Assembly: GCA_965662235.1 (NCBI GenBank)
Contig: CBFIGY010000011.1
Coordinates: forward strand, 21,328 to 85,327
DNA: 64,000 nt
Direction: 5' to 3'
From: an uncultured bacterium
GTDB lineage: Bacteria; SAR324; NAC60-12
This document shows positions 3,646 to 64,000 of this stretch, in pieces (positions within the stretch are counted from its first letter, which is position 1; every line of letters begins with the position of its first letter). The notes under the pieces are model-generated. The model did no database searches, was not told where the DNA came from, and saw nothing but the letters and a program-made list of their open reading frames with translations. A program made the translations under genes and the position numbers.

Positions 3646-3667
3646 GGGCAACACCGTATGAGCGGTT

Positions 3668-4795
3668 TTAGGAAGAAGGGGCGTCGTAGCGGCTGAGGAA
3701 TTCCGCCAGCTCCACGGCTTTCCCAGTGGAAGCCGATTCCTGAGCCGCCATTCCCATAGCAACCGCCATCAGGCCGTCTTGCAGCGAGACCTCGACCGAG
3801 CCCTGTCCCCGGACCACCGCGAGGAATTTTTCGTGCTGGTAGAACGTGGAGCCGTTGTGGTCCCCGGCCTCTAGGATCCGGGGATCCACCGGAACCTCAA
3901 ACTGCCGGGGCCCTTTGGGCGAGCGGGGGCTGACCACCACCTGCGGCACCGGAGGCGCGCCCAAGGCTTCAGGCCAGAAGCGCTGGGGGCCCGGAACCAG
4001 GCACTCCAGCTTCCCCTCTGGTCCCAGTGCGGAAATCTCCTCTTGGTACTTGGCACCTTCGGCAAACATGCAAAGCTCCAGCAGCGCCCGGGCGCCTTGG
4101 GCAAACTCGACGATGACGTAGGCGTGGTCCCAGATGTCGGGAGTCTCGCCGCCGTACTGCTCTTCCAGGTGGTTGTTCGCCTGACCCCCTGCGGCCATCA
4201 CCCGGACCGGCTCATCCTGAAGGGCGAAGCGCATCAGGTCAAAGAAGTGACAGCACTTCTCCACCAGCGTGCCTCCGGAGTAGCGGTTGAAGCGGTTCCA
4301 GTCACCAACCTTCTCCAGAAACGGGAAGCGGTGTTCCTGAATGGTGAGCATGCGGATGCCTCCGGTGACGCCCTGCGCTTCGTTCAGCAGGTACGCAACG
4401 GGCGGCATGTACCGGTATTCCATGGCCACCCAGATGGGGTGCGGAAAGGTGGCCTGCAGCTTCCGGATGCGGGGGAAGTCCTGCGGATCCGTCAGCAGGG
4501 GCTTTTCAACCAGAATCGGCAACGGGCGCTGCTCGGCGATCTGCTGAAGCTGCTCAACGTGCCGGAAGTTGGGACTGACAATGACGAGGCAATCTAGGTC
4601 CGGAAACGCCAGCAGCTCCTCGGCACTGGAAAAAAAGCGGGCCTCTGGAGCCAGCGGAACCGCTGCGGCGCGCATGCCGGGGTCGGGTTCAAAGATCGCC
4701 GTGACCTGAGTGTCCGGGAGAAGGTTGATGTTTCTGAGGTGCTCTTGGCCCATCATGCCGCAGCCGATCAAGCCATAACGAGTGAGGGAGGTCAT
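3668..4795 (-). CDS. Gfo/Idh/MocA family NAD(P)-dependent oxidoreductase
   Basis: N-terminal Rossmann motif YGLIGCGMMGQEH and family-typical EKP motif (ILVEKPLL). Its start is 3 nt from the stop of the GntR gene. Confidence 0.85.
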   Translation of the reverse strand: MTSLTRYGLIGCGMMGQEHLRNINLLPDTQVTAIFEPDPGMRAAAVPLAPEARFFSSAEELLAFPDLDCLVIVSPNFRHVEQLQQIAEQRPLPILVEKPLLTDPQDFPRIRKLQATFPHPIWVAMEYRYMPPVAYLLNEAQGVTGGIRMLTIQEHRFPFLEKVGDWNRFNRYSGGTLVEKCCHFFDLMRFALQDEPVRVMAAGGQANNHLEEQYGGETPDIWDHAYVIVEFAQGARALLELCMFAEGAKYQEEISALGPEGKLECLVPGPQRFWPEALGAPPVPQVVVSPRSPKGPRQFEVPVDPRILEAGDHNGSTFYQHEKFLAVVRGQGSVEVSLQDGLMAVAMGMAAQESASTGKAVELAEFLSRYDAPSS

Positions 4796-29649: not shown

Positions 29650-30309
29650 ATGGATGCTCGCCTACGTGACCTTCCGGACTGGAACTACCTGCTGCTGGAG
29701 TTTGATCAGATCTACCGTCTGGGCTCCTCCGGAGGCAGCACCATCATCCGCAGCCACCTGAGACGAGTCCGGGAAACCCTGAGGCGGGTGGTGAAGACCA
29801 ATCCCTTTTACACGCCTCGGCAGCCGGAGGTCAAACCCGTCAACGCGCACTGGGGACGGGCGCTGGATCTGGCAACCTCCGGACCCTTGGCGCACCTGGC
29901 GCGGGTGCTGCCTCGGGTGGAGTCGGAGCTGGTGTGGCAGTGGGGGTATGAGCGCATTCCCAAGGAGCTCGCCAAGCGATACGCCTACTGTGAACTGCTG
30001 GGGCCGCAGGGGCCCATTCAGTCGGAGGAGTTGATTTTGGGGCTCGTGCTTTTTGCCCCCGGGACCACGTATCCGCAGCACCGTCATGAGGAAATCGAGG
30101 AAAGCTACATCTCGCTGGCAGGGGCGTGGTCGGAGAATGACGGCGCGGTTTATGCGCCGGGCTCGCTCATCCTCAATCGCTCCAACCAGCACCACCGCAT
30201 CACCATTGGCACCCGCGATCCCTGCCTGCTGGCCTACGCTTGGATTGGCCCCCCCTCGCGCCTGACGAGCCAGGTCTTCCGCTTCTCACGCCTGCAGCGG
30301 ATGCCCTGA
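29650..30309 (+). CDS. cupin domain protein (DMSP-lyase DddL-like cupin family)
   Basis: Classic cupin motif 1 GTTYPQHRHEEIEESYISLAG and motif 2 around HHRITIG. Start at the ATG at 29650; the upstream 23 codons of the ORF-track version look like non-coding read-through. Confidence 0.6.
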   Translation: MDARLRDLPDWNYLLLEFDQIYRLGSSGGSTIIRSHLRRVRETLRRVVKTNPFYTPRQPEVKPVNAHWGRALDLATSGPLAHLARVLPRVESELVWQWGYERIPKELAKRYAYCELLGPQGPIQSEELILGLVLFAPGTTYPQHRHEEIEESYISLAGAWSENDGAVYAPGSLILNRSNQHHRITIGTRDPCLLAYAWIGPPSRLTSQVFRFSRLQRMP

Positions 30310-34881: not shown

Positions 34882-36327
34882 TCAGCGTCGCTCGCTGCGG
34901 AGGATGAAACGCTGCAGGGGCGGGGGAAGCATGAGGTCGAAGCGGAGGCTGATCGAGGTCAGGAACCAGCCAAAGAGCTGCTTGAGGGCAGCAAGGTGTT
35001 CGTCTTCCAGTGCGTAGTAGAGGTGCCGTCCGATGTAGATGGCGGGGCCCTTGCGAGAGAGCGTCTTGCCCTGAATGAGGAAGCGGATGAACGGGGCCTC
35101 GACTAGGCTGTCGGAGTCGGTGTCGAAGGCCCCAACGCCCAGCTGACAGGCAACCATCCAGCCTGCTGGAAGTTCCGTTTCTCCATCTAGGCGCAGGAGT
35201 TTGGGAATCCGGAACCCGAGCATGCGGCTGTATTCCCGCTGCAGGCGTCCGCCACGTTCAAAGGGGTGAGCGCTCCAGCGTTCCGAATCCCGGAACTGGC
35301 GGTCGGCTTCACTGAGCCAGTACTGCACGACGTTCAGCAGAGCTGCTTCGAAGGAAGCCTGATACCCCAGCAAGGACCGGGTGCCATCGAGCGCCGTTTC
35401 CACATAGTCCTCAATGCGGGCCTGGAAGTGCGGGGCCGAGCAGTCATCAACAGGATTGAGGGTCCGGATCACCTGCTTGAGGGGGGAAGCGTTGCGGGCG
35501 CAGTACTCCCGGAAGGCCTGCTCCAGATTTCCTGAGAGGGGCTCCGGACGCTCTAGGTCTTCGAGGGGTGGCTCTTCGGTGTCATCAATGTCCGACTGAG
35601 CAAGGCGGAGGACGCCTTCCTTGACAAGGCGCTCCACGGTCCGGAAGTCAAGCTTGCGGAGGAGGCTGTCCCAGCGCTTCACCGGACGTCCGAGCAGCTG
35701 TCCAAGACGCATCAGGAGCCAGGCGGTGCCTTCGTCGTTTTGAGCAAGGTCGTCCAGCTTCTTGAGGAAGAAGCGGTTCTTGGCAGTGAGGTAGATGTGG
35801 TAATGCGGGGAGAAGAGGCCCTGGAGGCGTTCTGCCAGAAAGGCCCGGCGGCGGTCTTCCGGAAAGCTGGGGATGGAGGCAAAGTGCTGCTCGAGCTTTT
35901 GCCGCTGCCTCAGCGTCTCAGAGGGCGCGTCCAGCAGCGTCTGCAGGCTGCGTTCGAGGGTGTTGCGGTAGGCGCTCAGGGCGTCAGCTTCCCGCTGCGT
36001 CCGGGCGAAGTCGAAGAGGCGGTGGATGACCGCAAGGGACTGGATGCTCTTCTGGACACTGGAACGCAGTGCGGCTTCGCCCTGTTCCGGGTCGTAGTTG
36101 GCAATGAGGCGCCGAACGGTTTCCGGGTGATAGAACTGAATGGCGTGGACGAAAGCGCGGTGCGGGTCGCTTCCGGGGTAGGGCATTTCCACCGGGTGCT
36201 CCTCCTGGAACGCTTCCCATGCCACGTCAAAGGCGTCACGGAAGGTGGACATGAGGAGCCCGGTGTCACCATTCAGGGCGCTCCGCAGGTGGGTGATGCG
36301 CTGGTTCCAAGAAGCCACACCGCTCAT
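34882..36327 (-). CDS. hypothetical protein of 481 aa, the downstream partner of the MoxR ATPase
   Basis: The 6-nt gap after the MoxR gene on the same strand implies co-transcription. The composition is normal for a protein (Phe/Tyr/Trp/Lys/Ile present), unlike the Gly/Val-rich antisense ORF 35740..36783. No TM segment, no signal peptide, and no recognisable vWA MIDAS (DxSxS) motif. Confidence 0.6.
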   Translation of the reverse strand: MSGVASWNQRITHLRSALNGDTGLLMSTFRDAFDVAWEAFQEEHPVEMPYPGSDPHRAFVHAIQFYHPETVRRLIANYDPEQGEAALRSSVQKSIQSLAVIHRLFDFARTQREADALSAYRNTLERSLQTLLDAPSETLRQRQKLEQHFASIPSFPEDRRRAFLAERLQGLFSPHYHIYLTAKNRFFLKKLDDLAQNDEGTAWLLMRLGQLLGRPVKRWDSLLRKLDFRTVERLVKEGVLRLAQSDIDDTEEPPLEDLERPEPLSGNLEQAFREYCARNASPLKQVIRTLNPVDDCSAPHFQARIEDYVETALDGTRSLLGYQASFEAALLNVVQYWLSEADRQFRDSERWSAHPFERGGRLQREYSRMLGFRIPKLLRLDGETELPAGWMVACQLGVGAFDTDSDSLVEAPFIRFLIQGKTLSRKGPAIYIGRHLYYALEDEHLAALKQLFGWFLTSISLRFDLMLPPPLQRFILRSERR

Positions 36328-36333
36328 GACGCC

Positions 36334-37344
<1,011 letters not shown>

Positions 37345-39979: not shown

Positions 39980-40300
39980 TTACTCAGTTGGGGTAATGCC
40001 CCGGAGGGAGCAGACGACCGTCAGGGTCCGGGGGGTGTAGATGCCCAAGGAAGCGACCGAAACCAGGGCCTGACTCCAGGTGGCCTCAACGGTCATCTCA
40101 TAGATCCGGCCTTGGGGGCAGCGGTTGTAGACTTCAAACTGAGGCTCGCCTTCGGTGCCCCAGTACCAGTAGTCGAGGGTTTGGACAATGCGTTCCTCCG
40201 AGGGCAGCTCTGCAGGGTACCGGAGGTGCAGCTGGCAGCCACTGAGGCCTCCGAGGGTGACAAGCAGCGTCAGGTAGATTCCAATTTGCCTCAGCCTCAT
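39980..40300 (-). CDS. Bor-family lipoprotein
   Basis: Lipobox LGGLSGC. The C-terminus LVSVASLGIYTPRTLTVVCS matches the Bor/Iss signature (...LGFITLGIYTPLEARVYCS). Start placed at MRLRQIGIYLTLLVTLGGLSGC at 40300, not the ORF-track start at 40435. Confidence 0.65.
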   Translation of the reverse strand: MRLRQIGIYLTLLVTLGGLSGCQLHLRYPAELPSEERIVQTLDYWYWGTEGEPQFEVYNRCPQGRIYEMTVEATWSQALVSVASLGIYTPRTLTVVCSLRGITPTE

Positions 40301-40337
40301 GCGGGGTCCCTTCTTGCGTTCATGCTGGAAAATGCGT

Positions 40338-40823
40338 TTAATGAGATGCCTCAGGGGAATCCGGCATCCAGAACTGCCAGTCCTGCAGTTGCTCTCCACG
40401 ATACAAAAATCGGGCAGTGAAGCAACCCGGTTCAAAGATTTTCGGAGTGAAGAGCCGGTCTCCTTCCCACATGGGCCGGTTTGTGAGTTCCGGACGCGGA
40501 ACCCACTCTAGGGCGCCTTCCGGACTGGAGTCCAGCAGGGTGCCCGTAAACTCGGTGGCATGGAAGACAAACACCTGCCACTCGTCTCCAAAGGGAGAGT
40601 CTCCGAAATCAGGAAAAGTCAGAACCGCCTTGAGTCGGGGGTTCAAAATCTGCAAGCCTGTCTCCTCATGGAACTCCCGGACGGCTGCTTCGTGCGGGGC
40701 CTCGTTGGGCTCAAGCTTCCCGCCGGGGGCCAGGTAGAAGCCCTGGTGCTCATCTTCCTTTTCCCGGTGGAGCATCAGCACCTGTCCCTCATGTTCCAGA
40801 TAGAGTAACGTCCCTAATTTCAC
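40338..40823 (-). CDS. NUDIX hydrolase
   Basis: Nudix box GGKLEPNEAPHEAAVREFHEETG (Gx5Ex7REUxEExGU). Confidence 0.85.
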   Translation of the reverse strand: MKLGTLLYLEHEGQVLMLHREKEDEHQGFYLAPGGKLEPNEAPHEAAVREFHEETGLQILNPRLKAVLTFPDFGDSPFGDEWQVFVFHATEFTGTLLDSSPEGALEWVPRPELTNRPMWEGDRLFTPKIFEPGCFTARFLYRGEQLQDWQFWMPDSPEASH

Positions 40824-40841
40824 CGTCTACCAACTGTTGCT

Positions 40842-41846
40842 GTGAATCCGAAGTTTTCCAATCAAGAAGTCAGTACCTTACTGGAACGGGTGGTCCAGAA
40901 GGCGCGCGAGGAGCAGGCCACAGGTTCCGGGGCCATTCAGCCCTATGAGCTGGGCAATCAGAACCGCATCATCCGGGGGCGCATGCCGGGGCTGGAGGCG
41001 GTGCATGACCGCTTCGCCAAGACCTTCTCGCATACCCTCGGGCAGCACCTGCGACGCTCCGTCACGATCACCCGCCGAGCCATTGAGTTGATCAGCATGA
41101 AGGACCTTTCAGACGGCACACCGTCTCCTTCGGCGCTCACGGTGTTTGGGCTCTCGCCGTTGCGGGGGCAGGGGCTGCTGACGTTTGAGCAACGCCTAGT
41201 GCATGCACTGATCGACCTGATGTTCGGAGGCAGTGGCCAGTATGAAGTGAGCCCGGTCAAACGGTCGTTCACCGGGATCGAGATGCGCATGGTTGCTAAG
41301 ATCGCCCGCTCGGCCCTCAATGACCTAGGCGCCGCTTGGAAGCCCTTTGTGCAGCTGAAACCGCACTATGAACGGATTGAGACGAGCCCGAAACTGGCGA
41401 ACATCTCCACCCCGGAAGAGGTCATTGTCGTCACCACCTTTGACGTTGAGATCCACCGCAACCCCATGACGCTGCGGATTGGCCTGCCCTACCTGATGCT
41501 GGATCCCATCCGGACCCGCCTGGACGCGGCCCTGCAGCAGAATGATGAGGAGGTCAACCACGTCAACGCGGCCCGGCTCGCAGAGAACCTGCGGCACACG
41601 CAGCTTCAGGTCAGTGTTGCCCTAGGGACCACCCGCATCAGCCTCCGGCACTTCCTCAAGCTCAAGGCCGGTGATGTGCTGCGGCTGGAGCAAGATGCCG
41701 AGGCGCCGCTGTCAGCAGCGCTCAATGGCGTAACCAAGTTCCGGGGAACCCAAGGCGCCTACAAGGGGAAGGTGGCCCTGAGGGTGGAGGAGGTGCTGAC
41801 GCCTCGTCCGCGCTTCCGGGACGTTCTGGACGACCGTGACGCTTAA
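40842..41846 (+). CDS. fliM: flagellar motor switch protein FliM
   Basis: Colinear similarity to E. coli FliM along the whole protein: IQPYELGNQNRIIRGRMPGLEAVHDRFAKTF... versus IRPYDPNTQRRVVRERLQALEIINERFARHF; LSPLRGQGLL...IDLMFGGSG versus LKPLRGTGLV...VDNLFGGDG; and a C-terminal FliN-like LKLKAGDVLRL... region. GTG start. Confidence 0.85.
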   Translation: MNPKFSNQEVSTLLERVVQKAREEQATGSGAIQPYELGNQNRIIRGRMPGLEAVHDRFAKTFSHTLGQHLRRSVTITRRAIELISMKDLSDGTPSPSALTVFGLSPLRGQGLLTFEQRLVHALIDLMFGGSGQYEVSPVKRSFTGIEMRMVAKIARSALNDLGAAWKPFVQLKPHYERIETSPKLANISTPEEVIVVTTFDVEIHRNPMTLRIGLPYLMLDPIRTRLDAALQQNDEEVNHVNAARLAENLRHTQLQVSVALGTTRISLRHFLKLKAGDVLRLEQDAEAPLSAALNGVTKFRGTQGAYKGKVALRVEEVLTPRPRFRDVLDDRDA

Positions 41847-42139
41847 TCGTTGTCTCGCTCAGCCGCTGCATTGACCCGCTCCCGAAGCTCCTTGCCTGGC
41901 CGGAAGACAGGGAGCTTCTTGGGCCTCACCTGAACCTTATCCCCTGTCCGAGGATTGCGGCCTTCGTAGCTGCCATAATGCTTGAGGCTAAAGGATCCAA
42001 ATCCTCGGATCTCCACCTTGTCTCCCACCTCCAGCGCCTGCTTGATCTGGTTGAAAAAGATGCGGACCACCTTGTCGGTCAACTGCACGTTGTAGCCGCT
42101 CTCTTCCGCAAGCATTTCAATCAACTGGGATTTGTTCAT
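41843..42139 (-). CDS. ihfB: integration host factor beta subunit / HU-family DNA-binding protein
   Basis: [15 protein letters not shown]...[30 protein letters not shown]...[14 protein letters not shown] aligns closely with E. coli IhfB (MTKSELIERLA...[30 protein letters not shown]...PHFKPGKELRDRAN). Confidence 0.8.
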   Translation of the reverse strand: [98 protein letters not shown]

Positions 42140-42355
42140 TACCACACCTTTCCGAAACGACCTCCTCTGGGGAGCATTGATCATTTAAGCGATTCACCAT
42201 AGGGGATTCTTTCAGTCAGCACAAGCCCGGAGCGTGCCTTCCTCTCCATCCGGAGGCCAACGTGAAACTTGAGCTTGTTCCTTCCTCCGAATTTCGCAAT
42301 ATTGACTGTTTCCTGTATCCCCCAAACGCACACCCATCACCAAACGGAAGCAGTC

Positions 42356-43378
42356 ATGCCAGTTGCGGATTACCAAACCTATTGCAAGATGTTGGACAAC
42401 GCCAAGGAAAAGAAATTTGCGTATCCAGCCATCAATGTTTCCTCCTTGGCGACCGCCAATGCGGCGCTTCAGGCCTTTGCTGAAGCCAAGAGCGACGGCA
42501 TTGTCCAGGTTTCCACCGGCGGGGGAGAGTTTGCCTCCGGACAGGCGGTTAAGAATTCGGCTCTTGGGGCCATTTCTCTGGCACAGCATGTCCACCTGAT
42601 GGCCGAACACTACAACGTTTTCATTGCCCTCCACACCGATCACTGCCAGCCCAAGAAGGTCGACTCCTTCATGCGCCCCTTGATTGAGGAAACGGCCAAA
42701 CGCCGTGCGCAGGGGCTTCCGAACCTCTTCAACTCCCACATGTTCGACGGCTCGGAACTGCCGCTGGGAGAGAACATGAAGATTGCCCGCGAGCTGATGG
42801 AGGTCTGTGCCGCCAATGAGATCATCCTGGAAGTGGAAGCCGGTGTGGTGGGCGGAGAAGAAGACGGTGTGGACCACGGAGACCTTCCGAATGAGAAGCT
42901 GTACACCACTCCGGAAGACATGCTGGAGGTGTATGAGCAGCTCAGCTCCTTGGGGCGCTTCATGTTTGCCGCCACCTTCGGGAACGTTCACGGGGTCTAC
43001 AAGCCCGGAAACGTGAAGCTCAAGCCAACCATCCTCCGGGATGGTCAGGAGGCGGTGATTGGGAAGCACGGCGCCGCAGCGTCCCTAGACCTGGTCTTCC
43101 ACGGAGGCTCCGGATCCACTCTGGAAGAGATCCATGAGACGCTGGAGTATGGGGTGATCAAGATGAACATTGACACCGACACCCAGTACGCCTTCACCCG
43201 TCCGATTGTGGACCACATGCTCCGCAAGTACGATGAGGTCCTCAAGGTCGAAAGCGAGGTGGGGAACAAGAAGGCTTACGACCCCCGGGCGTACCTGAAG
43301 CTCGCCGAGACAGGCATGAAGCAGCGCATCATGGACGCCTGCAACGACCTCCGCTCCACCGGCACCTCCCTCTACTGA
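42356..43378 (+). CDS. fbaA: class II fructose-bisphosphate aldolase
   Basis: Blocks shared with E. coli FbaA: HTDHC, GGEEDGVD, FGNVHGVYKPGNVKLKPTILRD, FVFHGGSGST and VKMNIDTDTQ. Confidence 0.9.
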   Translation: MPVADYQTYCKMLDNAKEKKFAYPAINVSSLATANAALQAFAEAKSDGIVQVSTGGGEFASGQAVKNSALGAISLAQHVHLMAEHYNVFIALHTDHCQPKKVDSFMRPLIEETAKRRAQGLPNLFNSHMFDGSELPLGENMKIARELMEVCAANEIILEVEAGVVGGEEDGVDHGDLPNEKLYTTPEDMLEVYEQLSSLGRFMFAATFGNVHGVYKPGNVKLKPTILRDGQEAVIGKHGAAASLDLVFHGGSGSTLEEIHETLEYGVIKMNIDTDTQYAFTRPIVDHMLRKYDEVLKVESEVGNKKAYDPRAYLKLAETGMKQRIMDACNDLRSTGTSLY

Positions 43379-44217: not shown

Positions 44218-44505
44218 ATGAGGAAACAAGTGATGGCATTTATTCTGGGAGGCAGCCTTTTGGCCTGCAGTGCGCCTCCTCAGGCCCTGACGGTGTCAAC
44301 GGACCTGCCGGAGATTGTCGTGGAGGTGGCCAAGAAGAAGGAGCTGCCGAAGCGAGAAGACCTCCCTTCTGGCATTCAGGAAACCTTTTCCCGCTCCTGC
44401 TCAGCCTACTGGGGGCAAGACTGGATCATGGTGCAGTACTGTGTGAAGAACCGCTCTGACGAGTACCTCCACCGCTACGGAGACACCCTTCCCAACCGGA
44501 CCTAG
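44218..44505 (+). CDS. small lipoprotein (hypothetical)
   Basis: MRKQVMAFILGGSLLACS contains the lipobox LLAC. 95 aa. Coding status uncertain. Confidence 0.45.
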   Translation: MRKQVMAFILGGSLLACSAPPQALTVSTDLPEIVVEVAKKKELPKREDLPSGIQETFSRSCSAYWGQDWIMVQYCVKNRSDEYLHRYGDTLPNRT

Positions 44506-45401
44506 TCTGACGTTGCTTCGGAGTGAGGGGTGAGGGTGTAGTGCTCCCAGAGGGAGGAACTGTGGTTAGAATCGGTGATGGCGTACTCACCCCGGAGGCG
44601 TCGAATGACAGCGCAGCGTTTTTCATAAGACGGAGGCGCGGCAAAGGTGGTGCTGAACTCATCGAGCACACAGTCCACTGGCTGAGCCTCTAGGGCCAGG
44701 CTGATGCGGGCCGGACCCGCGCAGTACTGCCCCCCAAAGTGCACCGTCTCTCCGCCCCACCCAATCACCTGACCCGGTAAGCACGGCAACGGTTGCACGC
44801 CGTGCAGGCAGGCCCGCAAAAGTCCCGGATTCAGACGTTCCTCTTCGCCCATGGTCTCCCAGAAGGCCTGAGAGGCTTTACGGGAGAGGACAAACATGCA
44901 TCCATTCTCCGGAGTCGCCACCGTGAGGGGAAGCCACAGGGTTTGCAGAAGCCGGTTTTGGGGATCGCGGTAGTGGTACCCCATCCCGTCGGCGTGCGGG
45001 GGCCAGCCATGACCGACGGTGCGATCGACATAGTGGAGGATGGGGTTGGCGCGGATGAAAGCAGGTTCGCCCAGAAGCTGCTGAGCCAACGTCCGGAGGG
45101 CCGGGTGGGTGATCAGCTTCCAAAGCTCCGGATAGATCAACGCGTAGGAAGACGGGTGCCCGGCGGAAACGACTTCCTGGACCAGCGAGGCACACTGATC
45201 AATCAGGCCCCGGTCCAGTGCCAGTCGCGTCCGGAACCACCCCAGCTCCTTCTGCATGGCTCGGGCGTGCTGAAGCCGCGCCCGCTGCAGCATGATCCGA
45301 GGGCGTGTGCGTGGGGTGGGGCCTGTGGCCTCTAGGTGCTGACGAAGGCGGTTCCAGTACTCCGGATGCTCCAACGGCTCGGTGCCGGTCGCAGGGGGCA
45401 T
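44502..45401 (-). CDS. PhyH-like Fe(II)/2OG dioxygenase family protein (tentative)
   Basis: The C-terminal two-thirds has PhyH-like elements (...GWPPHADG..., WLPLTVATPENGCMFVLS, ...ETVHF). The first 150 residues of the 450-aa ORF overlap the MATE gene antisense and look non-coding, so I chose MPPATGTE at 45401 as the start. Confidence 0.45.
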   Translation of the reverse strand: MPPATGTEPLEHPEYWNRLRQHLEATGPTPRTRPRIMLQRARLQHARAMQKELGWFRTRLALDRGLIDQCASLVQEVVSAGHPSSYALIYPELWKLITHPALRTLAQQLLGEPAFIRANPILHYVDRTVGHGWPPHADGMGYHYRDPQNRLLQTLWLPLTVATPENGCMFVLSRKASQAFWETMGEEERLNPGLLRACLHGVQPLPCLPGQVIGWGGETVHFGGQYCAGPARISLALEAQPVDCVLDEFSTTFAAPPSYEKRCAVIRRLRGEYAITDSNHSSSLWEHYTLTPHSEATSD

Positions 45402-45586
45402 GGCTGGGTCCTCCAGAAAGGGAAGCCGCGATCCGTTCGCTGCTTCTGGTAAGGGCCGGACTTCACGAAAACATGAGGGAGCCGCCCCAGATGCGGGGGT
45501 CACTGCACCGCAACCGGACCCAAAACACAAGGTCTTGGGCCTCAAAGGGGAAAAATTGGGTGGGGAGGGCTTCCCCAAAAAACGGC

Positions 45587-46906
45587 CTAATGAGAAGGGG
45601 CGGAGGCGGTTTCTGGGAAAATGGCACGCGAGGACAGCATTCCCAAGGAGGCGCCCCGGAGGACCATGAACACAGTCAGGGCGAGCCACAGTCCGTGGTT
45701 GCTCAGCAGCGGTTCCAGGAGAGCATAGAGGACAAAGAACGCGGCAGCACAACCGAGCATGGCGTTGCGCATGGTCCGGGTGGCCGTGGCGCCGATGTAA
45801 ATGCCGTCCCAGATGAAGGCGAAGAGGTTCAGCAGGGCTCCAACCACCAGCCACGGCAGGTAGACCTGCGCGAGCGCCACCACCTCGTCATGCGAAGTGA
45901 ACAGCTTCAGCAGCAGGGGTCCGGCAAATTCATACAGCAGCGCAAACGTGCCTCCGATTCCAGCCGCCCAGATCAGGAGCAAGCGGATGCACTGCCGGAG
46001 CCCGGAGGCGTCTCGCTGCCCAATGAAGCGTCCGACCAAACCCTGGCCCGCATTGGCAAAGCCATCGACGGCAAAGGAGATCAGCATCCACAGCTGCATC
46101 AGCAGGGAATTGGCTGCAAGCACAGCCTCTCCTTCCCAGGCTGAAGCAACGGTGAAGAAGGAGAACACCGAAATCAGCGCTAGGGTCCGGATGAGGATGT
46201 CGCGGTTGACCCGGAAGAAGTGCAGGAGGACCTCTGGATCAAAGAGGCGGCGGAGGTTTTGCTCCAGCGGAAGGTGTGGAAACCGCCACCGCAGCAAGAA
46301 GAAGGCAAAGAGAACACCGCAGTACTGGGCGACCACGGTCCCCCACGCGACGCCATCCGAAAAGAGGCCCAGGCCATAGACAAAGGTCAGGTTGCCGAGG
46401 ATGTTGAGGAGGTTGATGGCCAGGGTGAGGATCATCGGTGTCCGGGCGTCTTGCATGCCCAGGAACCAGCCACTGAGGACCATCAGCGTCAGGGTGGCTG
46501 GTGCTGCCCAGATGCGGATGTGAAAGTACGAAACGGCGGCGCCCAGCACCTCGGGCGTGGACTCCACCCACGGAAAAGCGAGGGCCGCAATTCCAGACTG
46601 GAGCAGGATCATCAGCAACCCGCCGACCAGCGCGACCAGAACGCCCCGCTGGAGCACCCGGCTGGTTTCCTGCTGATCACGCCGTCCCCAGGCCTGAGCG
46701 GTCATTCCGGTGGTGCCCATGGCCAGGAAGCCCAGGCCCCAGTAGAGGAAATTAAAGATCATGGTCCCGACCGCAAGGGCGCCCAGGTAGTGGCTCTCAG
46801 GCATGTGCCCCACCACAGCGGTGTCCACCATGCCCAGTAACGGGATGGAAACATTCGCGGCAATATTCGGGAGCGCGAGTTTCAGAATCTCACGGTTGAT
46901 GCCCAT
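45587..46906 (-). CDS. MATE family efflux transporter
   Basis: 439 aa, 12 TM segments. The N-terminus ILKLALPNIAANVSIPLLGMVDTAVVGH is the MATE (NorM/DinF) signature. Confidence 0.9.
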   Translation of the reverse strand: MGINREILKLALPNIAANVSIPLLGMVDTAVVGHMPESHYLGALAVGTMIFNFLYWGLGFLAMGTTGMTAQAWGRRDQQETSRVLQRGVLVALVGGLLMILLQSGIAALAFPWVESTPEVLGAAVSYFHIRIWAAPATLTLMVLSGWFLGMQDARTPMILTLAINLLNILGNLTFVYGLGLFSDGVAWGTVVAQYCGVLFAFFLLRWRFPHLPLEQNLRRLFDPEVLLHFFRVNRDILIRTLALISVFSFFTVASAWEGEAVLAANSLLMQLWMLISFAVDGFANAGQGLVGRFIGQRDASGLRQCIRLLLIWAAGIGGTFALLYEFAGPLLLKLFTSHDEVVALAQVYLPWLVVGALLNLFAFIWDGIYIGATATRTMRNAMLGCAAAFFVLYALLEPLLSNHGLWLALTVFMVLRGASLGMLSSRAIFPETASAPSH

Positions 46907-49624: not shown

Positions 49625-52549
49625 ATGCTTTCCATGAAACTTCACGACAAACGTCACGGGGCCGGGGCCCTCTTTCTGCTGCTACTGCTGCTCAGCCTGT
49701 TCCCCAGCCTCCTTGGGGCTCAGGAGTCGGTCCCCTCGCGGGAAGTCTACCTGCTGTCTCAGACCTTCAAGGTGGCGAAGCCCCCGACGCTGGAGGCCCA
49801 GTTTTCCCTGAACGGACAAAACCTGGTGACGCTTTCAGGAAACCACCGCCTGGAGTTCTGGGTGCCGCAGAGCGCCAAGCGCCTGAAGGTGCTTCCGACC
49901 GGAGATCACCGGGCAACCCTGTTTGTGCAGCACCCCACGGAGCCGTTGCTGCTGACTGGTGGCGTGGACGATACGTTGCGGATCTGGAACCTAGAACGGG
50001 CCATGGAAACAGGCATCCTCCGGGGACACCTCTCGGCCATCACGGGCATGGTCCTGGATCCCACTGCGACAACAGCCGTTTCAGGGAGTGAAGACGGGAC
50101 CCTCATCTACTGGGATCTCACGGAGCGGAAGCTCATCAAGAAGATTGAGCAGGCCCACCGGGGCGCCATCCACGCCCTGGAGTTCCACCCGGGTGGAGAG
50201 ATGCTCGCGTCGGGCGGAGCTGATGGGATGATTCACCTCTGGAAGCTCCCGGACCTGACCCTGATCAAGACCCTGGAGGGCCACCTGGACGAAGTCACGC
50301 AGGTCCGCTTCACGCCCCTTGGGGAGAAGCTGATTTCGAGTTCAGCCGACCGGACCCTCAAGTTCTGGGACTGGAACACCGGGACCATCGAAAAGTCGAT
50401 TGAGCACCACCGCAAAGCCGTCACCGGTTTCGATCTGCACCCGGACCTGGGGCGATTGGTGTCTGCCAGTGCGGATGGCGGTGTCGCGATTTGGACCTTT
50501 CCGGAAGGCGAGCACGTCTTTGACCTGAAGTCGGTCGCGGGGCCGGTTTCGCAGATCCACTTTGATGCCAGTGGCAAGCGCCTCATTGCCGCTCTTTCTG
50601 AAGGACAGGTGCAGACGTGGGAGCTGGGAACCTCTTCCTTCTTGGCTTCCTTGACGGGGCACGAGCGTCCCGTGGACGCCCTCGCCTTCTCCCGGAATGG
50701 CAAGTACCTCGCCACGGCGTCTTCGGACAAAACCATTCGCTTCTGGGAGATGGAAAGCAACAAGATGGTGCGGCAGTACGTCACCGAGAACCATCGGGTG
50801 CAGTCCATGAGCTTCTCGCCAGACAGCAAGTACCTGTACACCGGCGGCGCAGACTCGACCATCCGGATCTGGAATGCTCAAGATGGGGCACAGGAGGCAC
50901 GGTTGGCCGCTCACAAGGGAAAGGTCAACGCCCTAGCGTTTCACCCGAATGGGAAGGTGCTGCTGACCGGTGGCTCGGACCACCAGTGGATGCTTTGGGA
51001 CCTCGAAACCAATGAAAACTACCGCGTCCAGAAGTCGCACCGAGACCAAGTGACCGCGGTGGATTTCTCTCCGGATGGTTCTCTGTTTGTCACGGCGAGC
51101 AACGACCGCACGGCGCAGATCTGGTCCTTTCCCAAAGGAGAGCCGCTGGGCGTCCTCCGTGGACACTCCCGGGGGCTCACGGATGTGGCATTTAGTCCTA
51201 CCGATCCCTTCATTGCCACCGCGTCACAGGACGGCACCCTGCGGCTCTGGGACATCACCGACCCGGAGGAACCGACCCTGCGGCTCATTCTGGAGGGGCA
51301 CAGTTACATCATCTCCCGGTTGTTTTTCTCCAAAAACGGGAAGGCCCTGGTTTCCATCTCCCGGGACAAAACCGTTCGGCTCTGGAGCGCGGTCAATGGA
51401 CAGATGATCCGCATCCTCAACGGAGAGAGCACCGCATTGACCAACGGTGCCCTCAGTCCGGACGGCTCCTTGATTGCGGTGACCAACCTGGCCAACACCG
51501 TGAGCCTGCTGGCGTACCCAGAGAACATCCCGGAACTCAAGGCACTTGAGGCGGCTCCGGTGGCCAGCGCCGAGGCAGGCTCGGTACCGGCGGCAGAGGC
51601 GGCTCCGGTTGCGCTGGAACCCATTTCCCTGAGTGACCCCGTCCGGAACCTTTCGGACCTGACGGTTGCGAATGTGCAGATGACTCCGGAGGAGATGCAG
51701 GTGTATGCGGTACCCGTGGTGCCGCCTCCTTCCACACGGGGAGAGGAGCTGCAGCAGGAGCTGGACCGGCTCCTGAAGCAGCAGGTGTGTCAGGAGCTGA
51801 GCCCGCTGGAACAGGTGGCGTTGGAGCTGTTGACGTACTATCCGGATGAAATGGCGGCCTACCATGCGCTCCTCAAGGCGGCGCTCCTTCGCGGTGACCT
51901 GCCCCTGGCTCAACTGCTGGTGTACGTCGGCAACGAAGCACGGTTCCGGGTGAACCGGTTTGACTATGCCACCGAGCTGACGGTCCGGAACACCTTTGAC
52001 ACGTGGAAGAGCACCGTCTTTGATCAAACTTCCCCTCGGCAGGGCAAGCCCATGGAGTTTCGGCTCCGGAACTGCCAGGGGCAGGAGCAGGTGCTGACGC
52101 TTCCGGAAGACCTGCAGACCCTGCGGGTGCCTCAGGAGTTCATCCAGAAGCTGAACTCCATTCCGCGCATCATCGACTTCCGGGACTTCCGGAACATGCC
52201 GCTTGAGGAGTTCCTCAACCGCTTCCACCGGGAAGTGGAGCGGGTGCTGCAGACCGATCAGCCTCTGCCACTGGCACGCCTGCCTCGGCCCCTTTCTCAA
52301 CCGGTGGAACCCCAGGAAACGGGGTTACTGGACCTGAACCTGGAGCGGACGACGTCTTGGAAGAATGGCGGTAATGTTCCCTTCCGGCTCCGTCGGGCCA
52401 CCCAGCCGTGGCAGTCGTACGTCACCGACCGGGACAACCGGTTGCTGCTGCAGCTGCCAATTGGCAACTACTCCCTGCAGGTCGGAACCACCATTAGCAG
52501 TGCCTTCCGTATAGAACCCGGCATCACCACTACTCCGATCCTCAAGTAA
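49625..52549 (+). CDS. secreted WD40-repeat protein (about 14 blades, two beta-propellers) with a C-terminal ~350-aa domain of unknown function
   Basis: Signal peptide MKLHDKRHGAGALFLLLLLLSLFPSLLGAQE. Fourteen roughly 40-aa repeats with GH...WD/WN dipeptides (e.g. RGHLSAITGMVLDP...SEDGTLIYWDL). Residues ~620-974 have no repeats and no recognisable motif. Confidence 0.85.
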   Translation: MLSMKLHDKRHGAGALFLLLLLLSLFPSLLGAQESVPSREVYLLSQTFKVAKPPTLEAQFSLNGQNLVTLSGNHRLEFWVPQSAKRLKVLPTGDHRATLFVQHPTEPLLLTGGVDDTLRIWNLERAMETGILRGHLSAITGMVLDPTATTAVSGSEDGTLIYWDLTERKLIKKIEQAHRGAIHALEFHPGGEMLASGGADGMIHLWKLPDLTLIKTLEGHLDEVTQVRFTPLGEKLISSSADRTLKFWDWNTGTIEKSIEHHRKAVTGFDLHPDLGRLVSASADGGVAIWTFPEGEHVFDLKSVAGPVSQIHFDASGKRLIAALSEGQVQTWELGTSSFLASLTGHERPVDALAFSRNGKYLATASSDKTIRFWEMESNKMVRQYVTENHRVQSMSFSPDSKYLYTGGADSTIRIWNAQDGAQEARLAAHKGKVNALAFHPNGKVLLTGGSDHQWMLWDLETNENYRVQKSHRDQVTAVDFSPDGSLFVTASNDRTAQIWSFPKGEPLGVLRGHSRGLTDVAFSPTDPFIATASQDGTLRLWDITDPEEPTLRLILEGHSYIISRLFFSKNGKALVSISRDKTVRLWSAVNGQMIRILNGESTALTNGALSPDGSLIAVTNLANTVSLLAYPENIPELKALEAAPVASAEAGSVPAAEAAPVALEPISLSDPVRNLSDLTVANVQMTPEEMQVYAVPVVPPPSTRGEELQQELDRLLKQQVCQELSPLEQVALELLTYYPDEMAAYHALLKAALLRGDLPLAQLLVYVGNEARFRVNRFDYATELTVRNTFDTWKSTVFDQTSPRQGKPMEFRLRNCQGQEQVLTLPEDLQTLRVPQEFIQKLNSIPRIIDFRDFRNMPLEEFLNRFHREVERVLQTDQPLPLARLPRPLSQPVEPQETGLLDLNLERTTSWKNGGNVPFRLRRATQPWQSYVTDRDNRLLLQLPIGNYSLQVGTTISSAFRIEPGITTTPILK

Positions 52550-52612: not shown

Positions 52613-52931
52613 AAATTAATATTATGTAAATTTAATGATCTCTTTTTCTTTGGAAAGAGGGCAAGAAACCGAGTTGAGAAGATGATGGAAAGGAAGCCTT
52701 GAGGCCGTAAAAAGGACGGGAGCCTGATTTGAACGGAGAACTGACCTACGGAGACGAGGCAGAGAGGAAGCCGGCATGAGGTCAAATCGAACCCGACAAT
52801 CGGAAGCTCCACGCTCCTTCTGGTGAGAAAGCGAGAGGGGTGAGGCGTCTGCCAGGAGGCGTTTTTCGGCACTTTTCGGTACAGGGAAGGCAGGCGCAAG
52901 CGGGGTGACCGGCTCGCGCCCGGAGGGCTCC

Positions 52932-53435
52932 TTATTCCTCGTCAGGGTCGAGAATGGAGTTGATGGCGGTGACAACGCGCATGGTGTCGAGGTTGTTGAG
53001 GGGAGCGTACACGAGGATGGCTTGCTTCTCCCGGTCAATGTTCACCGAGTCCTTCCCCATTTTCTCTTGCTCCGGTTGGGAGTTGATGAAGTAGCAGTAG
53101 GAGTTGTTGGGAAGTTCGGTGTCTGTCACCTTGACAAAGTCGTACTGACTGCCTTCGGGGATGACGTTGAGGCTATAGACGTGGTCGAAGCCTTCTCGGG
53201 TGAACTGCTTGAGGAACTTAACCACCTCCGGCTTTTGCTCCTGCTTGATGCGGTGCGAAAGCTGTGTGATCAGTTGTCCTTCTTTGTCACCGGTGTGGCG
53301 ACGGTCGGTGTTGGTGAAGATGCCCATTCCCTGGCGGAAGGGGTGAACGGCAGCCCAGAAGAGCTTCTCCATCAACTCTTCCCAGCGGTCGTGTGGGCAG
53401 AGGTGAACCTGCTTCAAGCGAGAGTCGTCAGACAT
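52932..53435 (-). CDS. hypothetical acidic protein of 167 aa
   Basis: High GC3 and protein-like composition on the minus strand. The overlapping plus-strand ORF 52905..53504 is Gly/Val/Leu-rich and typical of antisense. Acidic tail ILDPDEE. Second gene of a two-gene operon, 41 nt after the upstream gene. Confidence 0.55.
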   Translation of the reverse strand: MSDDSRLKQVHLCPHDRWEELMEKLFWAAVHPFRQGMGIFTNTDRRHTGDKEGQLITQLSHRIKQEQKPEVVKFLKQFTREGFDHVYSLNVIPEGSQYDFVKVTDTELPNNSYCYFINSQPEQEKMGKDSVNIDREKQAILVYAPLNNLDTMRVVTAINSILDPDEE

Positions 53436-53476
53436 GCGAATTTCCTGGTGCGGTGGAGAAAGAAGGAAGGCGGTGC

Positions 53477-54616
53477 TCAGCCTCCGGACGCTTTTACCAA
53501 CTGATTGATGGCACGGGCAACATGAGGGTCATCGGAACGTCCCCGCAGCGCCTCAACGGATTTCTTGGAGAGGGTGCTCAGGCTTTCCGGAATCGCCTCT
53601 CCGCTGCGCTTGACCTGCACCAGCGCTTTGGTGCACAGCGACGCCAATTGCAGCAGGCACCCGGTCTCAAAGCCGGGCTTGGGAGAGACGCCAATGTTGT
53701 CCGCGTTCTGTTGAGAGAACTGCAGGGCCTCCTGGATCAACTTGGAGGTCTGCTCGGTCAGTTCCGGTTTCTTGAGAAACCGGTTCTGTAGCTGAATGAC
53801 CTCAATGTCAACGCGACGGTACTCGGCTTCATGGAAGTTAGCGAGTAGGGACTTCTTGTCCGCGCTCTTGATGGCATCGAGGAGCTGCTGCTGCTGCTCA
53901 CGGAGCAACGGAAGGATGGCAAAGAGCTGCAGGAGGTGGTCGATCTGCTGCTGCAGGTCCGTGCTGGGTTTCCCGCCAAAGGCGATTTCCTTGTACTTGA
54001 GAACCACAGAGCCGTTGTTGCTGTTGACCTTGAGGACGTGGATCAGTTCCGCAAGGAAGGAGCGGCCATTCCGGACCTGCTGAAGCTGGTCCTTGACGCG
54101 TTCGTCGCGGTCGGCTTCCACCACCAAGCGCATCTCATCGTCCTTCAGGGCCTCATAGAGCGCCGAGAGCAGGCGGTTTTGCATGAGGGCCGCAAGGTAG
54201 AGAGACGGCTGCCGAGCCTGGGTGGGGTCGAGGTTATTGACGTGGGCCAGCAGGGTGGCATCCATCAGCGCCGCGACGTTCCCCTTAATCGAGCTTCCGG
54301 AGAACATCAGCAGCATCTCGGTCCGGGTGTCCAGTGCCCAAGGATCGTTGATCAGGTGCCGGGCAAGGTCCTGAGCATCGGCTCCGAGTGCCTCTGCGAG
54401 TCGCAGGCCTGCGGCATCCGGACCGGAGGCTTCCGGGAGGGGCTTTTGTGAGAGACTTTGTCCCACACCCTTGAGGGCCGAGCTGACAATGGTCCGGCGC
54501 TTGGCAGAGTTGAACTGCGTCTTGGGCTGTTGAAACAGGCGTCCCATCACGGTGAGGATCCCAAACGGGTCCCCATAGATGGGCAACTCTCGTACGCGAA
54601 TATCCGTCAGTGACAT
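53477..54616 (-). CDS. hypothetical protein of 379 aa
   Basis: Normal amino-acid composition. Central Gln-rich predicted helical region (...LLREQQQQLLDAIKSADKK...). No TM segment, signal peptide or known catalytic motif. First gene of the two-gene operon. Confidence 0.6.
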   Translation of the reverse strand: MSLTDIRVRELPIYGDPFGILTVMGRLFQQPKTQFNSAKRRTIVSSALKGVGQSLSQKPLPEASGPDAAGLRLAEALGADAQDLARHLINDPWALDTRTEMLLMFSGSSIKGNVAALMDATLLAHVNNLDPTQARQPSLYLAALMQNRLLSALYEALKDDEMRLVVEADRDERVKDQLQQVRNGRSFLAELIHVLKVNSNNGSVVLKYKEIAFGGKPSTDLQQQIDHLLQLFAILPLLREQQQQLLDAIKSADKKSLLANFHEAEYRRVDIEVIQLQNRFLKKPELTEQTSKLIQEALQFSQQNADNIGVSPKPGFETGCLLQLASLCTKALVQVKRSGEAIPESLSTLSKKSVEALRGRSDDPHVARAINQLVKASGG

Positions 54617-62493: not shown

Positions 62494-62826
62494 ATTCTTC
62501 CTTGCCGGTTGAAGAAGGGGCTCTATACAATTGCGGCCTGTGCTCTCGCCCTCAGGAAGTCGTGTTTAATGATTATTGAATATAGTCAATCAAAAGCTGA
62601 AAACGGTCACAATTTTGTCCTAAAAGGGGAAATGACGGAAAGTGAAGTGGAGGCTTTCATAACGTACTTGAGCCAGCTGCTTCACCCCCGGGAAGGACTC
62701 AAGGTTCAGGTGTCGTTGGACTGCTCTGAGTTGGTGGGAGGTGATTCCTGTGAGTGACACGATCGTGACTGGTCCCTTTAGAGGTGCAACACATTGAAAA
62801 ACGATCCGACCCCTGCATTTTTGTCG

Positions 62827-64000
62827 ATGTTGCCCACCCAAGTTCTTTGGGGGCGTCTGCTGCTGTTCCTGTTCCTGTTGCTCGGGATCGCTTCCTGCGA
62901 GCAAGGCGGTAAGAAAGAAGTGGAGCCGGACCTGATTCCTCCGGAGGCGCTGTCGCTTTCCTTCACCGATACCGGTGTCTCTGCGACGGATAACGTAACC
63001 CAGGATGGCACGATCACGATCGCCAACCTGGAAGCCTCGGCCTCGTGGCAGTACAGCGAAGACAACGGCACAACTTGGAACGCAAGGGACAACACCACGA
63101 CTTCGTTTGTCCTTGCGGAAGGGGTTTACTCCGCAGGAGAGGTTCAGGTTTATCAGACCGATGAGGCGGGGAACGACTCTCCGGTCAGTCGACTGGAGGC
63201 ACTGGTAGTGGATCAGAGCGTGGACGTACCGCAGCTGGCACTGGTTCAGGATACGGGTAATTCATCCAGTGACAACCTGACCCAAAACGGGGTGATGGCG
63301 GTCTCGGGGCTCGAGGCTGGAGCCAGCTGGGAGTACTCGGTGGACAGCGGTTGGAACTGGACGCCTGGCGTGGGAACGTCGGTGGAACTTCCTCCGCGGG
63401 TTTACCTCGAGGGCACCTTCCAGGTCCGTCAGACCGACCTAGCGGGCAATCAATCGGAGCCGGCCACCTTGGGACGGTTTGAGGTGGACACCACGTCACT
63501 GCTGCTGACGTTTCAGCTGCTGGAGGATACCGGAAGCGCAAGTGACGACTTTGTGACCCAAAACGGGATCATCCTGGTCCAGAACCTAGAGGTTGGCGCG
63601 CGCTGGGAGTACTCGCAGGACAACGGGAGCACTTGGGACAATGGCACAGTAGATAACTTTACTCTACCGGAAGGAAGTTATGCCGCCGGAGAGGTGCAGG
63701 TGCGTCAGGTGGATCCGGCAGGAAACCCATCAACGCCTGATGCAAACGAAGGCACCTGGGTCATTGACCAAACGCCTCCTGCTGCGCCAGCGGTCGCTTT
63801 GAAAGTGGATTCCGGAAGCTCCAGTGTCGATGGCCTGACCCGAAGTGCCACGCTGGTGGTGTCTGGGCTGGAAGACCAGGCGACCTGGGAAGCGTCTGAG
63901 GACAATGGCAGCACCTGGAAAGCGGGCGTGGGGACAGAGTGGACACCGACCTCTGGAACCAACTGGCCGGTGGGCACCTTGCAGGTCCGGCAGACCGACC
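62827..64000 (+). CDS. lipoprotein built of tandem Ig-like repeat domains (adhesin-like). The window holds only the N-terminal 391 aa; the gene continues beyond the right edge.
   Basis: Manual translation: MLPTQVLWGRLLLFLFLLLGIASC (lipobox LGIASC), then at least four ~95-aa repeats following the pattern D(T/S)G.S..D..T..G...(V/I)..LE....W.YS.DNG.TW........(F/W).L.....Y.AG.(V/L)QV(R/Y)QTD.AGN.S. It is not in the ORF track because the window ends before any stop codon. Confidence 0.7.
   Translation, partial: MLPTQVLWGRLLLFLFLLLGIASCEQGGKKEVEPDLIPPEALSLSFTDTGVSATDNVTQDGTITIANLEASASWQYSEDNGTTWNARDNTTTSFVLAEGVYSAGEVQVYQTDEAGNDSPVSRLEALVVDQSVDVPQLALVQDTGNSSSDNLTQNGVMAVSGLEAGASWEYSVDSGWNWTPGVGTSVELPPRVYLEGTFQVRQTDLAGNQSEPATLGRFEVDTTSLLLTFQLLEDTGSASDDFVTQNGIILVQNLEVGARWEYSQDNGSTWDNGTVDNFTLPEGSYAAGEVQVRQVDPAGNPSTPDANEGTWVIDQTPPAAPAVALKVDSGSSSVDGLTRSATLVVSGLEDQATWEASEDNGSTWKAGVGTEWTPTSGTNWPVGTLQVRQTD

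Follow-up and report, generated by a model that had tools for sequence, protein, structure and literature searches.

The flagellar switch gene fliM is typically found in a fliLMNOPQR-type operon, between an upstream fliL and a downstream fliN that share its strand, although this layout describes a typical gene order and is not a criterion for membership of the family. In Helicobacter and Caulobacter, the organisation of the flagellar genes is dispersed. The same is true of Campylobacter jejuni, where fliN lies away from fliM and fliY is found directly downstream of fliM (PMC6946799). For the SAR324 phylum, Cao et al. 2016 (PMC4782131) reported flagellar genes scattered genome-wide, Malfertheiner et al. 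2022 (PMC9031357) detected genes for flagellar motility in every SAR324 genome, and Mende et al. 2016 (PMC4749706) counted 23 of the 32 flagellar-assembly genes listed in KEGG when they examined an improved SAR324 assembly. Here we analyse a fliM gene that does not show the fliLMNOPQR-type layout and that lies in a stretch of 64,000 nucleotides from an uncultured SAR324 bacterium (assembly GCA_965662235.1, contig CBFIGY010000011.1, positions 21,328 to 85,327 of the forward strand), which in its full length is referred to below as the window.

From the observations that follow, we conclude that in this gene a bacterium of the SAR324 phylum very probably has its canonical and functional fliM, and that the gene forms a one-gene unit in a scattered flagellar regulon. 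It is a one-gene unit because the genes on either side of it both lie on the other strand, and such a transcription unit is accounted for by the scattering of flagellar genes in SAR324 genomes. On this reading, SAR324 flagellar genes would not be organised in fliLMNOPQR-type operons but would lie dispersed, singly or in small units, and the protein would serve as the C-ring switch protein under FliG, making up the flagellar rotor and switch together with FliN-type partners.

Identity and conservation of the window FliM

The gene and the parts of its product are as follows.

40842..41846, + strand: fliM coding sequence, 334 amino acids, GTG start, TAA stop (41844-41846)
40842..40901, + strand: N-terminal peptide, residues 1-20, with a degenerate docking motif for phosphorylated CheY (CheY-P), MNPKFSNQEVSTLLERVVQK
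40944..41522, + strand: FliM middle (CheC-like) domain, residues 35-227, PF02154, model positions 1-192 of 192, 2.4e-45
41586..41798, + strand: C-terminal SpoA or FliN-like domain (FliMN_C), residues 249-319, PF01052, 2.4e-19

Compared with the NCBIfam model TIGR01397 (fliM_switch), the protein scores 248.9 bits and so passes the curated equivalog cut-off of 219.6, with a match that spans residues 6-319 and model positions 4-319 of 320. The best match among solved structures is Salmonella FliM in the C ring determined by cryo-electron microscopy (8umd_C, 334 amino acids), residues 29-321 aligning onto 32-323 with an E-value of 1.1e-43; the SpoA domain also aligns with Salmonella FliN (8umd_D) and with a FliM::FliN fusion (4yxb). 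Two related identities were ruled out by score, namely a FliY or CheC-type phosphatase (NF005995, 43 bits against a cut-off of 218; NF006272, 14.5 against 219) and SctQ, the cytoplasmic ring protein of the injectisome (TIGR02551, 24.6 bits against a cut-off of 100.8; NF006018, 11.3 against 223). The GTG at 40842 is the sole in-frame start codon in its open frame, which opens at 40818, and the start call is confirmed by the marine orthologues, which begin with ATG at the equivalent position. The initial annotation, made from the sequence before these comparisons, had read the gene as a full-length FliM colinear with that of E. coli and starting with GTG, and it was right on both counts. The GGXG motif of the FliM middle domain, which contacts FliG (PMC6700473), is kept in the window protein as MFGGSGQ and occurs in each of the 120 listed homologues.

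A scan of a genome collection returned 16 loci, all from SAR324-cluster or 'Deltaproteobacteria' metagenome-assembled genomes, with FliM identities from 92% to 48%, and a search of protein databases returned this FliM family in more than 100 clusters, several of which carry the NCBI or Joint Genome Institute (JGI) name 'flagellar motor switch protein FliM [SAR324 cluster bacterium]'. The open reading frame (ORF) is intact and of similar length in these more than 100 orthologue clusters. The homologues listed comprise SAR324 orthologues at 100-44% identity, one relative with linked fliM and fliG at 40%, and then other phyla at 34% or less, and no second SAR324-labelled type of FliM is found among them. 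The named matches from outside SAR324 belong to Betaproteobacteria, and the nearest non-SAR324 FliM proteins are about 31-34% identical. The window itself represents a high-GC (60%) branch of SAR324, its FliM sharing 92% and 68% identity with those of the two nearest genomes and about 50% with those of the marine clades.

The ratio of nonsynonymous to synonymous substitution rates (dN/dS) of fliM, calculated between the window and the 92% relative (L002), is 0.059; the values for neighbouring genes are 0.038 for rodA, 0.037 for the HU/IHF-family gene, 0.088 for the NUDIX hydrolase gene and 0.092 for gltX. Its GC content (0.62) and third-codon-position GC content (GC3; 0.78) are similar to those of the neighbouring genes. 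Thus, fliM is under strong purifying selection, as are the neighbouring housekeeping genes, and because its dN/dS lies within the range of its neighbours and its GC and GC3 match theirs, it is neither decaying nor newly acquired. Horizontal transfer of fliM was rejected on the basis of this composition and of the clade-wide synteny described below.

A conserved gene block and scattered flagellar genes

The genes that surround fliM in the window, and the spacer upstream of it, are the following.

39980..40300, - strand: Bor-family lipoprotein gene, PF06291 (Lambda_Bor), 1.9e-09, in the conserved block
40338..40823, - strand: NUDIX hydrolase gene, PF00293, 5.7e-20, GTG start, divergent from fliM, in the conserved block
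40824..40841, no strand: spacer between the divergent NUDIX and fliM start codons, 18 bp, without a Shine-Dalgarno sequence
41843..42139 (longer frame to 42184), - strand: HU/IHF-family gene, 98 amino acids, IHF-beta-like, PF00216, 1.9e-29, convergent with fliM

Locating the window proteins in related loci by tblastn, we observed the Bor, NUDIX, fliM and HU genes in the same order and orientation at 14 of the 16 genome loci, with the short locus L017 containing fliM and HU only. The four-gene block is also present in the contigs L018-L020 and around the two most divergent SAR324 FliM proteins found, P0102 (which the PGAP annotation pipeline calls 'FliM/FliN family') and P0098. Counted together, 18 SAR324 species or contigs other than the window, with FliM identities between 92% and 48%, place fliM in this block. 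In Deltaproteobacteria bacterium TL4 (L021), the fliM-HU half is present and the contig stops about 0.5 kb upstream of fliM. The NUDIX gene adjoins fliM in every SAR324 locus that extends upstream of fliM, and the HU/IHF-family gene adjoins it in all SAR324 loci, TL4 included. Genes outside the block vary between loci, except in the closest relative, L002, and since the outer flanks differ in this way it is the block itself that is conserved. The gene context is the same for every SAR324 FliM checked, from 92% to 44% identity, and because every one of these sat in the block, they form one orthologue group. With a divergent NUDIX gene on one side and a convergent IHF-beta-like gene on the other, fliM occupies a position that dates back to the ancestor of the clade.

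Among the outlying genes, three signalling genes of TL4 within about 5-7 kb downstream of fliM (L021:2204-8608) encode a protein with receiver and HATPase_c_2 domains, a CheY-like single-domain regulator of 129 amino acids and a methyl-accepting chemotaxis protein; at L026, a gene for a receiver and HATPase_c_2 protein adjoins the block.

A different arrangement is seen in L022, which is probably a Lambdaproteobacteria-like relative. Here fliM is followed by a 66-amino-acid ORF without a family and then by fliG (L022:10001-12646); the FliM protein is 40% identical to that of the window and has the canonical docking motif LSQAEVDTLL, and the NUDIX/HU block is absent. Given that fliM lies near fliG and without the block in this relative, the SAR324 arrangement may derive from a more clustered ancestor.

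Within the window, a Pfam scan of 58 further ORFs and open frames, which cover nearly the whole 64 kb including both window ends and the larger ORFs in gaps, and of which seven were also compared with NCBIfam, revealed no second flagellar or chemotaxis family; six of the 58 have no family match at all. A local hidden Markov model of the C-terminal SpoA domain of FliM, run with filters off against every stop-to-stop frame that reaches 40 amino acids, matched fliM alone, so there is no hidden fliN in the window. These scans bear out the initial annotation in its statements that the 64 kb hold no other flagellar gene and that fliM is monocistronic with the NUDIX gene on the opposite strand, both neighbours being on the minus strand.

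We then find that fliM is not alone in its isolation. Using the FliG of L022 as the query, we obtained many SAR324 FliG proteins that are 64-86% identical to this Lambdaproteobacteria-like sequence, and fliG is a singleton in each of three genomes from the phylum (GCA_015231825.1, TL4 GCA_051382335.1 and GCA_002995645.1).

L023:10001-11014: singleton fliG
L024:10001-11014: singleton fliG
L027:10001-11014: singleton fliG

The flanking genes differ between these genomes, and in none of the three does fliF, fliH or any further flagellar family occur within 10 kb on either side of fliG. A hidden FliF upstream of fliG in L023 and L024 was considered and rejected, as the upstream genes are mutually unrelated and have no FliF domains. 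In TL4, fliM and fliG are on different contigs and each is isolated. Because fliG is as isolated as fliM, isolation is not evidence for a paralogue. Where the initial annotation spoke of an unusual dispersed flagellar regulon as one possibility, the dispersal is upheld by the singleton fliG and by the published account (PMC4782131), while the word 'unusual' does not apply to what is the published norm of the lineage. In the one supplementary text file of Cao et al. that we consulted, FliM, FliN and FliG were not found.

The immediate neighbours of fliM deserve some comment. The NUDIX gene matches no NCBIfam equivalog above its cut-off, and beyond it lie the Bor-family lipoprotein gene, rodA and gltX. 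The Bor gene likely starts at the methionine ahead of the lipobox LSGC, its longest ORF extending to 40435. The HU/IHF-family gene, annotated at 98 amino acids in L001, has IHF beta as its best NCBIfam models, both below cut-off (NF001222, 101.8 bits against 115; TIGR00988, 95.9 against 119.95), and the IHF-alpha and HU models score lower than these. Hence, of the initial assignment of a convergent ihfB, the convergence stands and the name is better given as IHF-beta-like. The stop codons of the two convergent genes overlap (fliM 41844-41846, HU/IHF-family gene 41843-41845), and we found no terminator-like hairpin between them; on these grounds it is probable that the transcripts of fliM and of the IHF-like gene overlap in their 3' parts. 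In relatives, the gap between the two genes is 2-50 bp.

As the initial annotation remarked, fliM has no strong Shine-Dalgarno sequence, but this is not a peculiarity of the gene: a recognisable one within 25 nucleotides of the start codon is present at about 6 of the 23 window gene starts inspected (e.g. those at 10546, 15487, 17325, 38814 and 44039). It may be that this lineage initiates translation for the most part independently of Shine-Dalgarno sequences.

Regulation, switching input and alternative explanations

Between the divergent NUDIX and fliM start codons lie 14-20 bp in the window and the 13 SAR324 loci measured. With only 18 bp available in the window, each of the two promoters would have to lie within the coding sequence of the other gene, that of fliM in NUDIX and that of NUDIX in fliM. 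Three hundred nucleotides upstream of fliM were scanned in 21 loci for the sigma-54 consensus (TGGCAC-N5-TTGCW, with GG/GC required and at least 8 of 11 positions matching) and the sigma-28 consensus (TAAA-N14-16-GCCGATAA, at least 9 of 12 positions), and neither was found, except for one weak sigma-28-like match in L013. A sigma-70 scan of 40300-42400 in the window returned no sites.

The N-terminal peptide of FliM docks CheY-P through the motif LSQXEIDALL, with EIDAL at its core (PMC6700473, PMC6946799). In the window this motif reads FSNQEVSTLL, with EVSTL in place of EIDAL, so that the Glu, the Val/Ile position and the Leu-Leu pair are kept and Asp is replaced by Ser. Comparing the N-termini of the 120 listed homologues, we observed that the marine SAR324 motif, SKKELNALL, is likewise degenerate and has Asn at the position of Asp, as is that of P0102 (SPKALSRLL). 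Across the SAR324 variants, the Glu, an aliphatic residue and Leu-Leu are mostly retained and the Asp is lost. Canonical motifs are present in the betaproteobacterial matches (LSQDEVDALL) and in the Lambdaproteobacteria-like P0106 (LSQAEVDTLL). The CheY-binding N-terminus that had been pointed out initially (NQEVSTLLERV) is therefore present as a peptide, but in a degenerate rather than a canonical form.

Several points weigh against our conclusion that this is the canonical, functional fliM. That it is the sole fliM of its source genome, and that this genome has the full flagellar set including fliG and fliN, is drawn from relatives and from the literature, 64 kb of the genome itself having been examined. 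We did not locate fliN in SAR324: in about 0.45 Mb of sequence, made up of the window and the related loci, the only ORF with a SpoA domain is fliM. Upstream of fliM there is no recognisable sigma-70, sigma-54 or sigma-28 promoter. Because the Asp of EIDAL is Ser in the window and Asn in marine SAR324, chemotactic switching may be altered or weak, and few or no che genes were reported in some SAR324 bins (PMC4782131). We nevertheless expect that the protein would assemble into a working motor.

Of the alternatives, the one that survives best also takes the gene to be the canonical fliM but makes its fixed position functional, with overlapping divergent promoters that couple NUDIX and fliM and an IHF-beta-like protein that takes part in the control of flagellar genes. 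We regard this as unlikely. IHF acts at sigma-54 flagellar promoters in Caulobacter. The four-gene block survives in reshuffled surroundings down to about 48% FliM identity, with the spacer held constant at 14-20 bp. Synonymous codon identity is 0.54-0.61 over the first 30 NUDIX codons, against roughly 0.4-0.55 later in the gene, and 0.67 over the first 10 codons of fliM. In addition, the 11-mer CCTAATTTCAC (reverse complement GTGAAATTAGG), which spans the NUDIX start at window positions 40812-40823 and encodes Val/Met-Lys-Leu-Gly, is common to 60%-GC and AT-rich SAR324 sequences, being kept at synonymous sites, the rare Leu codon TTA included, in L002, L004, L006, L007 and L010-L016. However, the apparent synonymous excess at the two 5' ends is small and is explained equally well by constraints on translation initiation, where such an excess is expected; the 11-mer is altered in L003, and only there; and the 21 loci contain no sigma-54 or sigma-28 consensus, apart from the weak match already mentioned. 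Furthermore, L022 has fliM near fliG and no block, and tight packing of genes can by itself freeze their order.

Much less probable, in our view, is the first of the two explanations offered in the initial annotation, that of a second and diverged paralogue of fliM recruited to a non-flagellar role; in that case, the true fliM would be expected elsewhere, in a conventional operon. This idea draws on the solitary position of fliM among housekeeping genes, on its degenerate CheY-docking motif and on the limited portion of the source genome examined, 64 kb. Yet the protein scores above the FliM equivalog cut-off and far below those for FliY and SctQ, no second SAR324-labelled type appears among the listed homologues, and fliG is equally isolated. 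Every SAR324 FliM checked, including the one that PGAP places in the 'FliM/FliN family', has the same context. Recruitment to a non-flagellar role also finds no support in the low dN/dS, the matching GC content and the positional orthology. The initial annotation had itself noted that dispersed flagellar genes or a canonical copy would speak against its proposal, and this is what the singleton fliG, the positional orthology of the SAR324 FliM proteins checked and the published scatter (PMC4782131) indicate.

Finally, we give hardly any credence to the gene being a relic in a lineage that is losing or is without flagella, kept by chance or heading for decay, since, although no flagellar partner lies within 64 kb and chemotaxis genes are scarce in some SAR324 bins, the ORF is intact at similar length in more than 100 orthologue clusters, its dN/dS of 0.06 is as low as those of rodA and gltX, GGXG is conserved throughout, and FliG proteins 64-86% identical to the Lambdaproteobacteria-like query occur across the phylum.

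We also considered whether SAR324 might have a fully 'atomised' flagellar regulon, with single-gene fliM and fliG at fixed, phylum-wide positions among housekeeping genes, a proposal that we advance only as a long shot. If it were true, stoichiometric assembly would be coordinated without operons, perhaps via overlapping promoters in the 14-20 bp spacer, via the IHF-beta-like protein or via both, and the eroded CheY-docking peptide would signify a changed or reduced switching input.

Other genes of the window and comparison with known systems

Elsewhere in the window, a gene at 49625-52549 encodes a 974-amino-acid protein of multiple beta-propellers, in which the WD40 repeats number at least nine and which gives very strong matches to many WD40 families with eukaryotic names. 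A MoxR-type AAA ATPase gene (36334-37344) adjoins an ORF of 481 amino acids without a family match (34882-36327), and the pair (34882-37344) may belong to the Bat/MoxR 'aerotolerance' cluster, which according to Cao et al. (PMC4782131) is conserved in SAR324. The longest ORF with a PhyH domain (44502-45854, 450 amino acids) overlaps a MatE gene (45587-46906) by about 270 nucleotides on the same strand; as the Pfam match covers residues 242-376 only, its true start is probably well downstream. At 62782-64000, an open frame that continues past the window end has repeated Big_13 Ig-like domains and an N-terminus resembling a signal peptide, and probably encodes a large surface or adhesin protein. 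Candidate ORFs with no Pfam or NCBIfam match are found at 2404-3762 (452 amino acids), 29662-30195 (177), 52905-53504 (199) and 53477-54616 (379), the last two overlapping slightly on opposite strands.

The scatter of flagellar genes in SAR324 is already published, and FliM orthologues are already annotated in public SAR324 genomes, so that the current understanding of FliM function is unchanged by our analysis. What is mildly new is the clade-wide Bor-NUDIX-fliM-IHF-like block with its divergent spacer of 14-20 bp, together with the singleton fliG. We stress that an isolated flagellar gene is no evidence for a recruited paralogue where a whole lineage scatters its flagellar genes. SAR324 is among the most abundant bacterial groups of the deep ocean; the block provides a synteny marker for the clade, and the group is a possible natural test case for the co-regulation of a machine of roughly 30 genes without operons.

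The closest counterparts of the window gene are the annotated SAR324 FliM proteins (for example P0020, P0055 and P0105, including that of Deltaproteobacteria bacterium TL4), which belong to the same orthologue group and share the Bor-NUDIX-fliM-HU context; the window differs from them in lying on the high-GC branch (60% GC, GTG start). With the FliM of Salmonella enterica and E. coli (8umd_C, TIGR01397), the window protein has in common a length of 334 amino acids and a three-part layout, in which a docking peptide at the N-terminus is followed by the CheC-like middle domain with its GGXG motif and by a SpoA domain at the C-terminus. It differs in its docking motif, EVSTL where theirs is EIDAL, and in that its gene is monocistronic among housekeeping genes, whereas genes of the Salmonella and E. 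coli type are inside fliLMNOPQR and are followed by fliN. The FliY and CheC phosphatases and SctQ share CheC-like domains, SpoA domains or both with the window FliM, as reflected in weak matches whose scores are far under the cut-offs. Campylobacter jejuni resembles SAR324 in having flagellar genes that are spread out instead of being collected into a few large operons. However, C. jejuni fliM keeps fliY downstream, whereas in SAR324 the 10 kb on either side of fliM and of fliG contain no flagellar neighbour, and dispersal appears more extreme in SAR324 than in C. jejuni, as Cao et al. 2016 (PMC4782131) noted.

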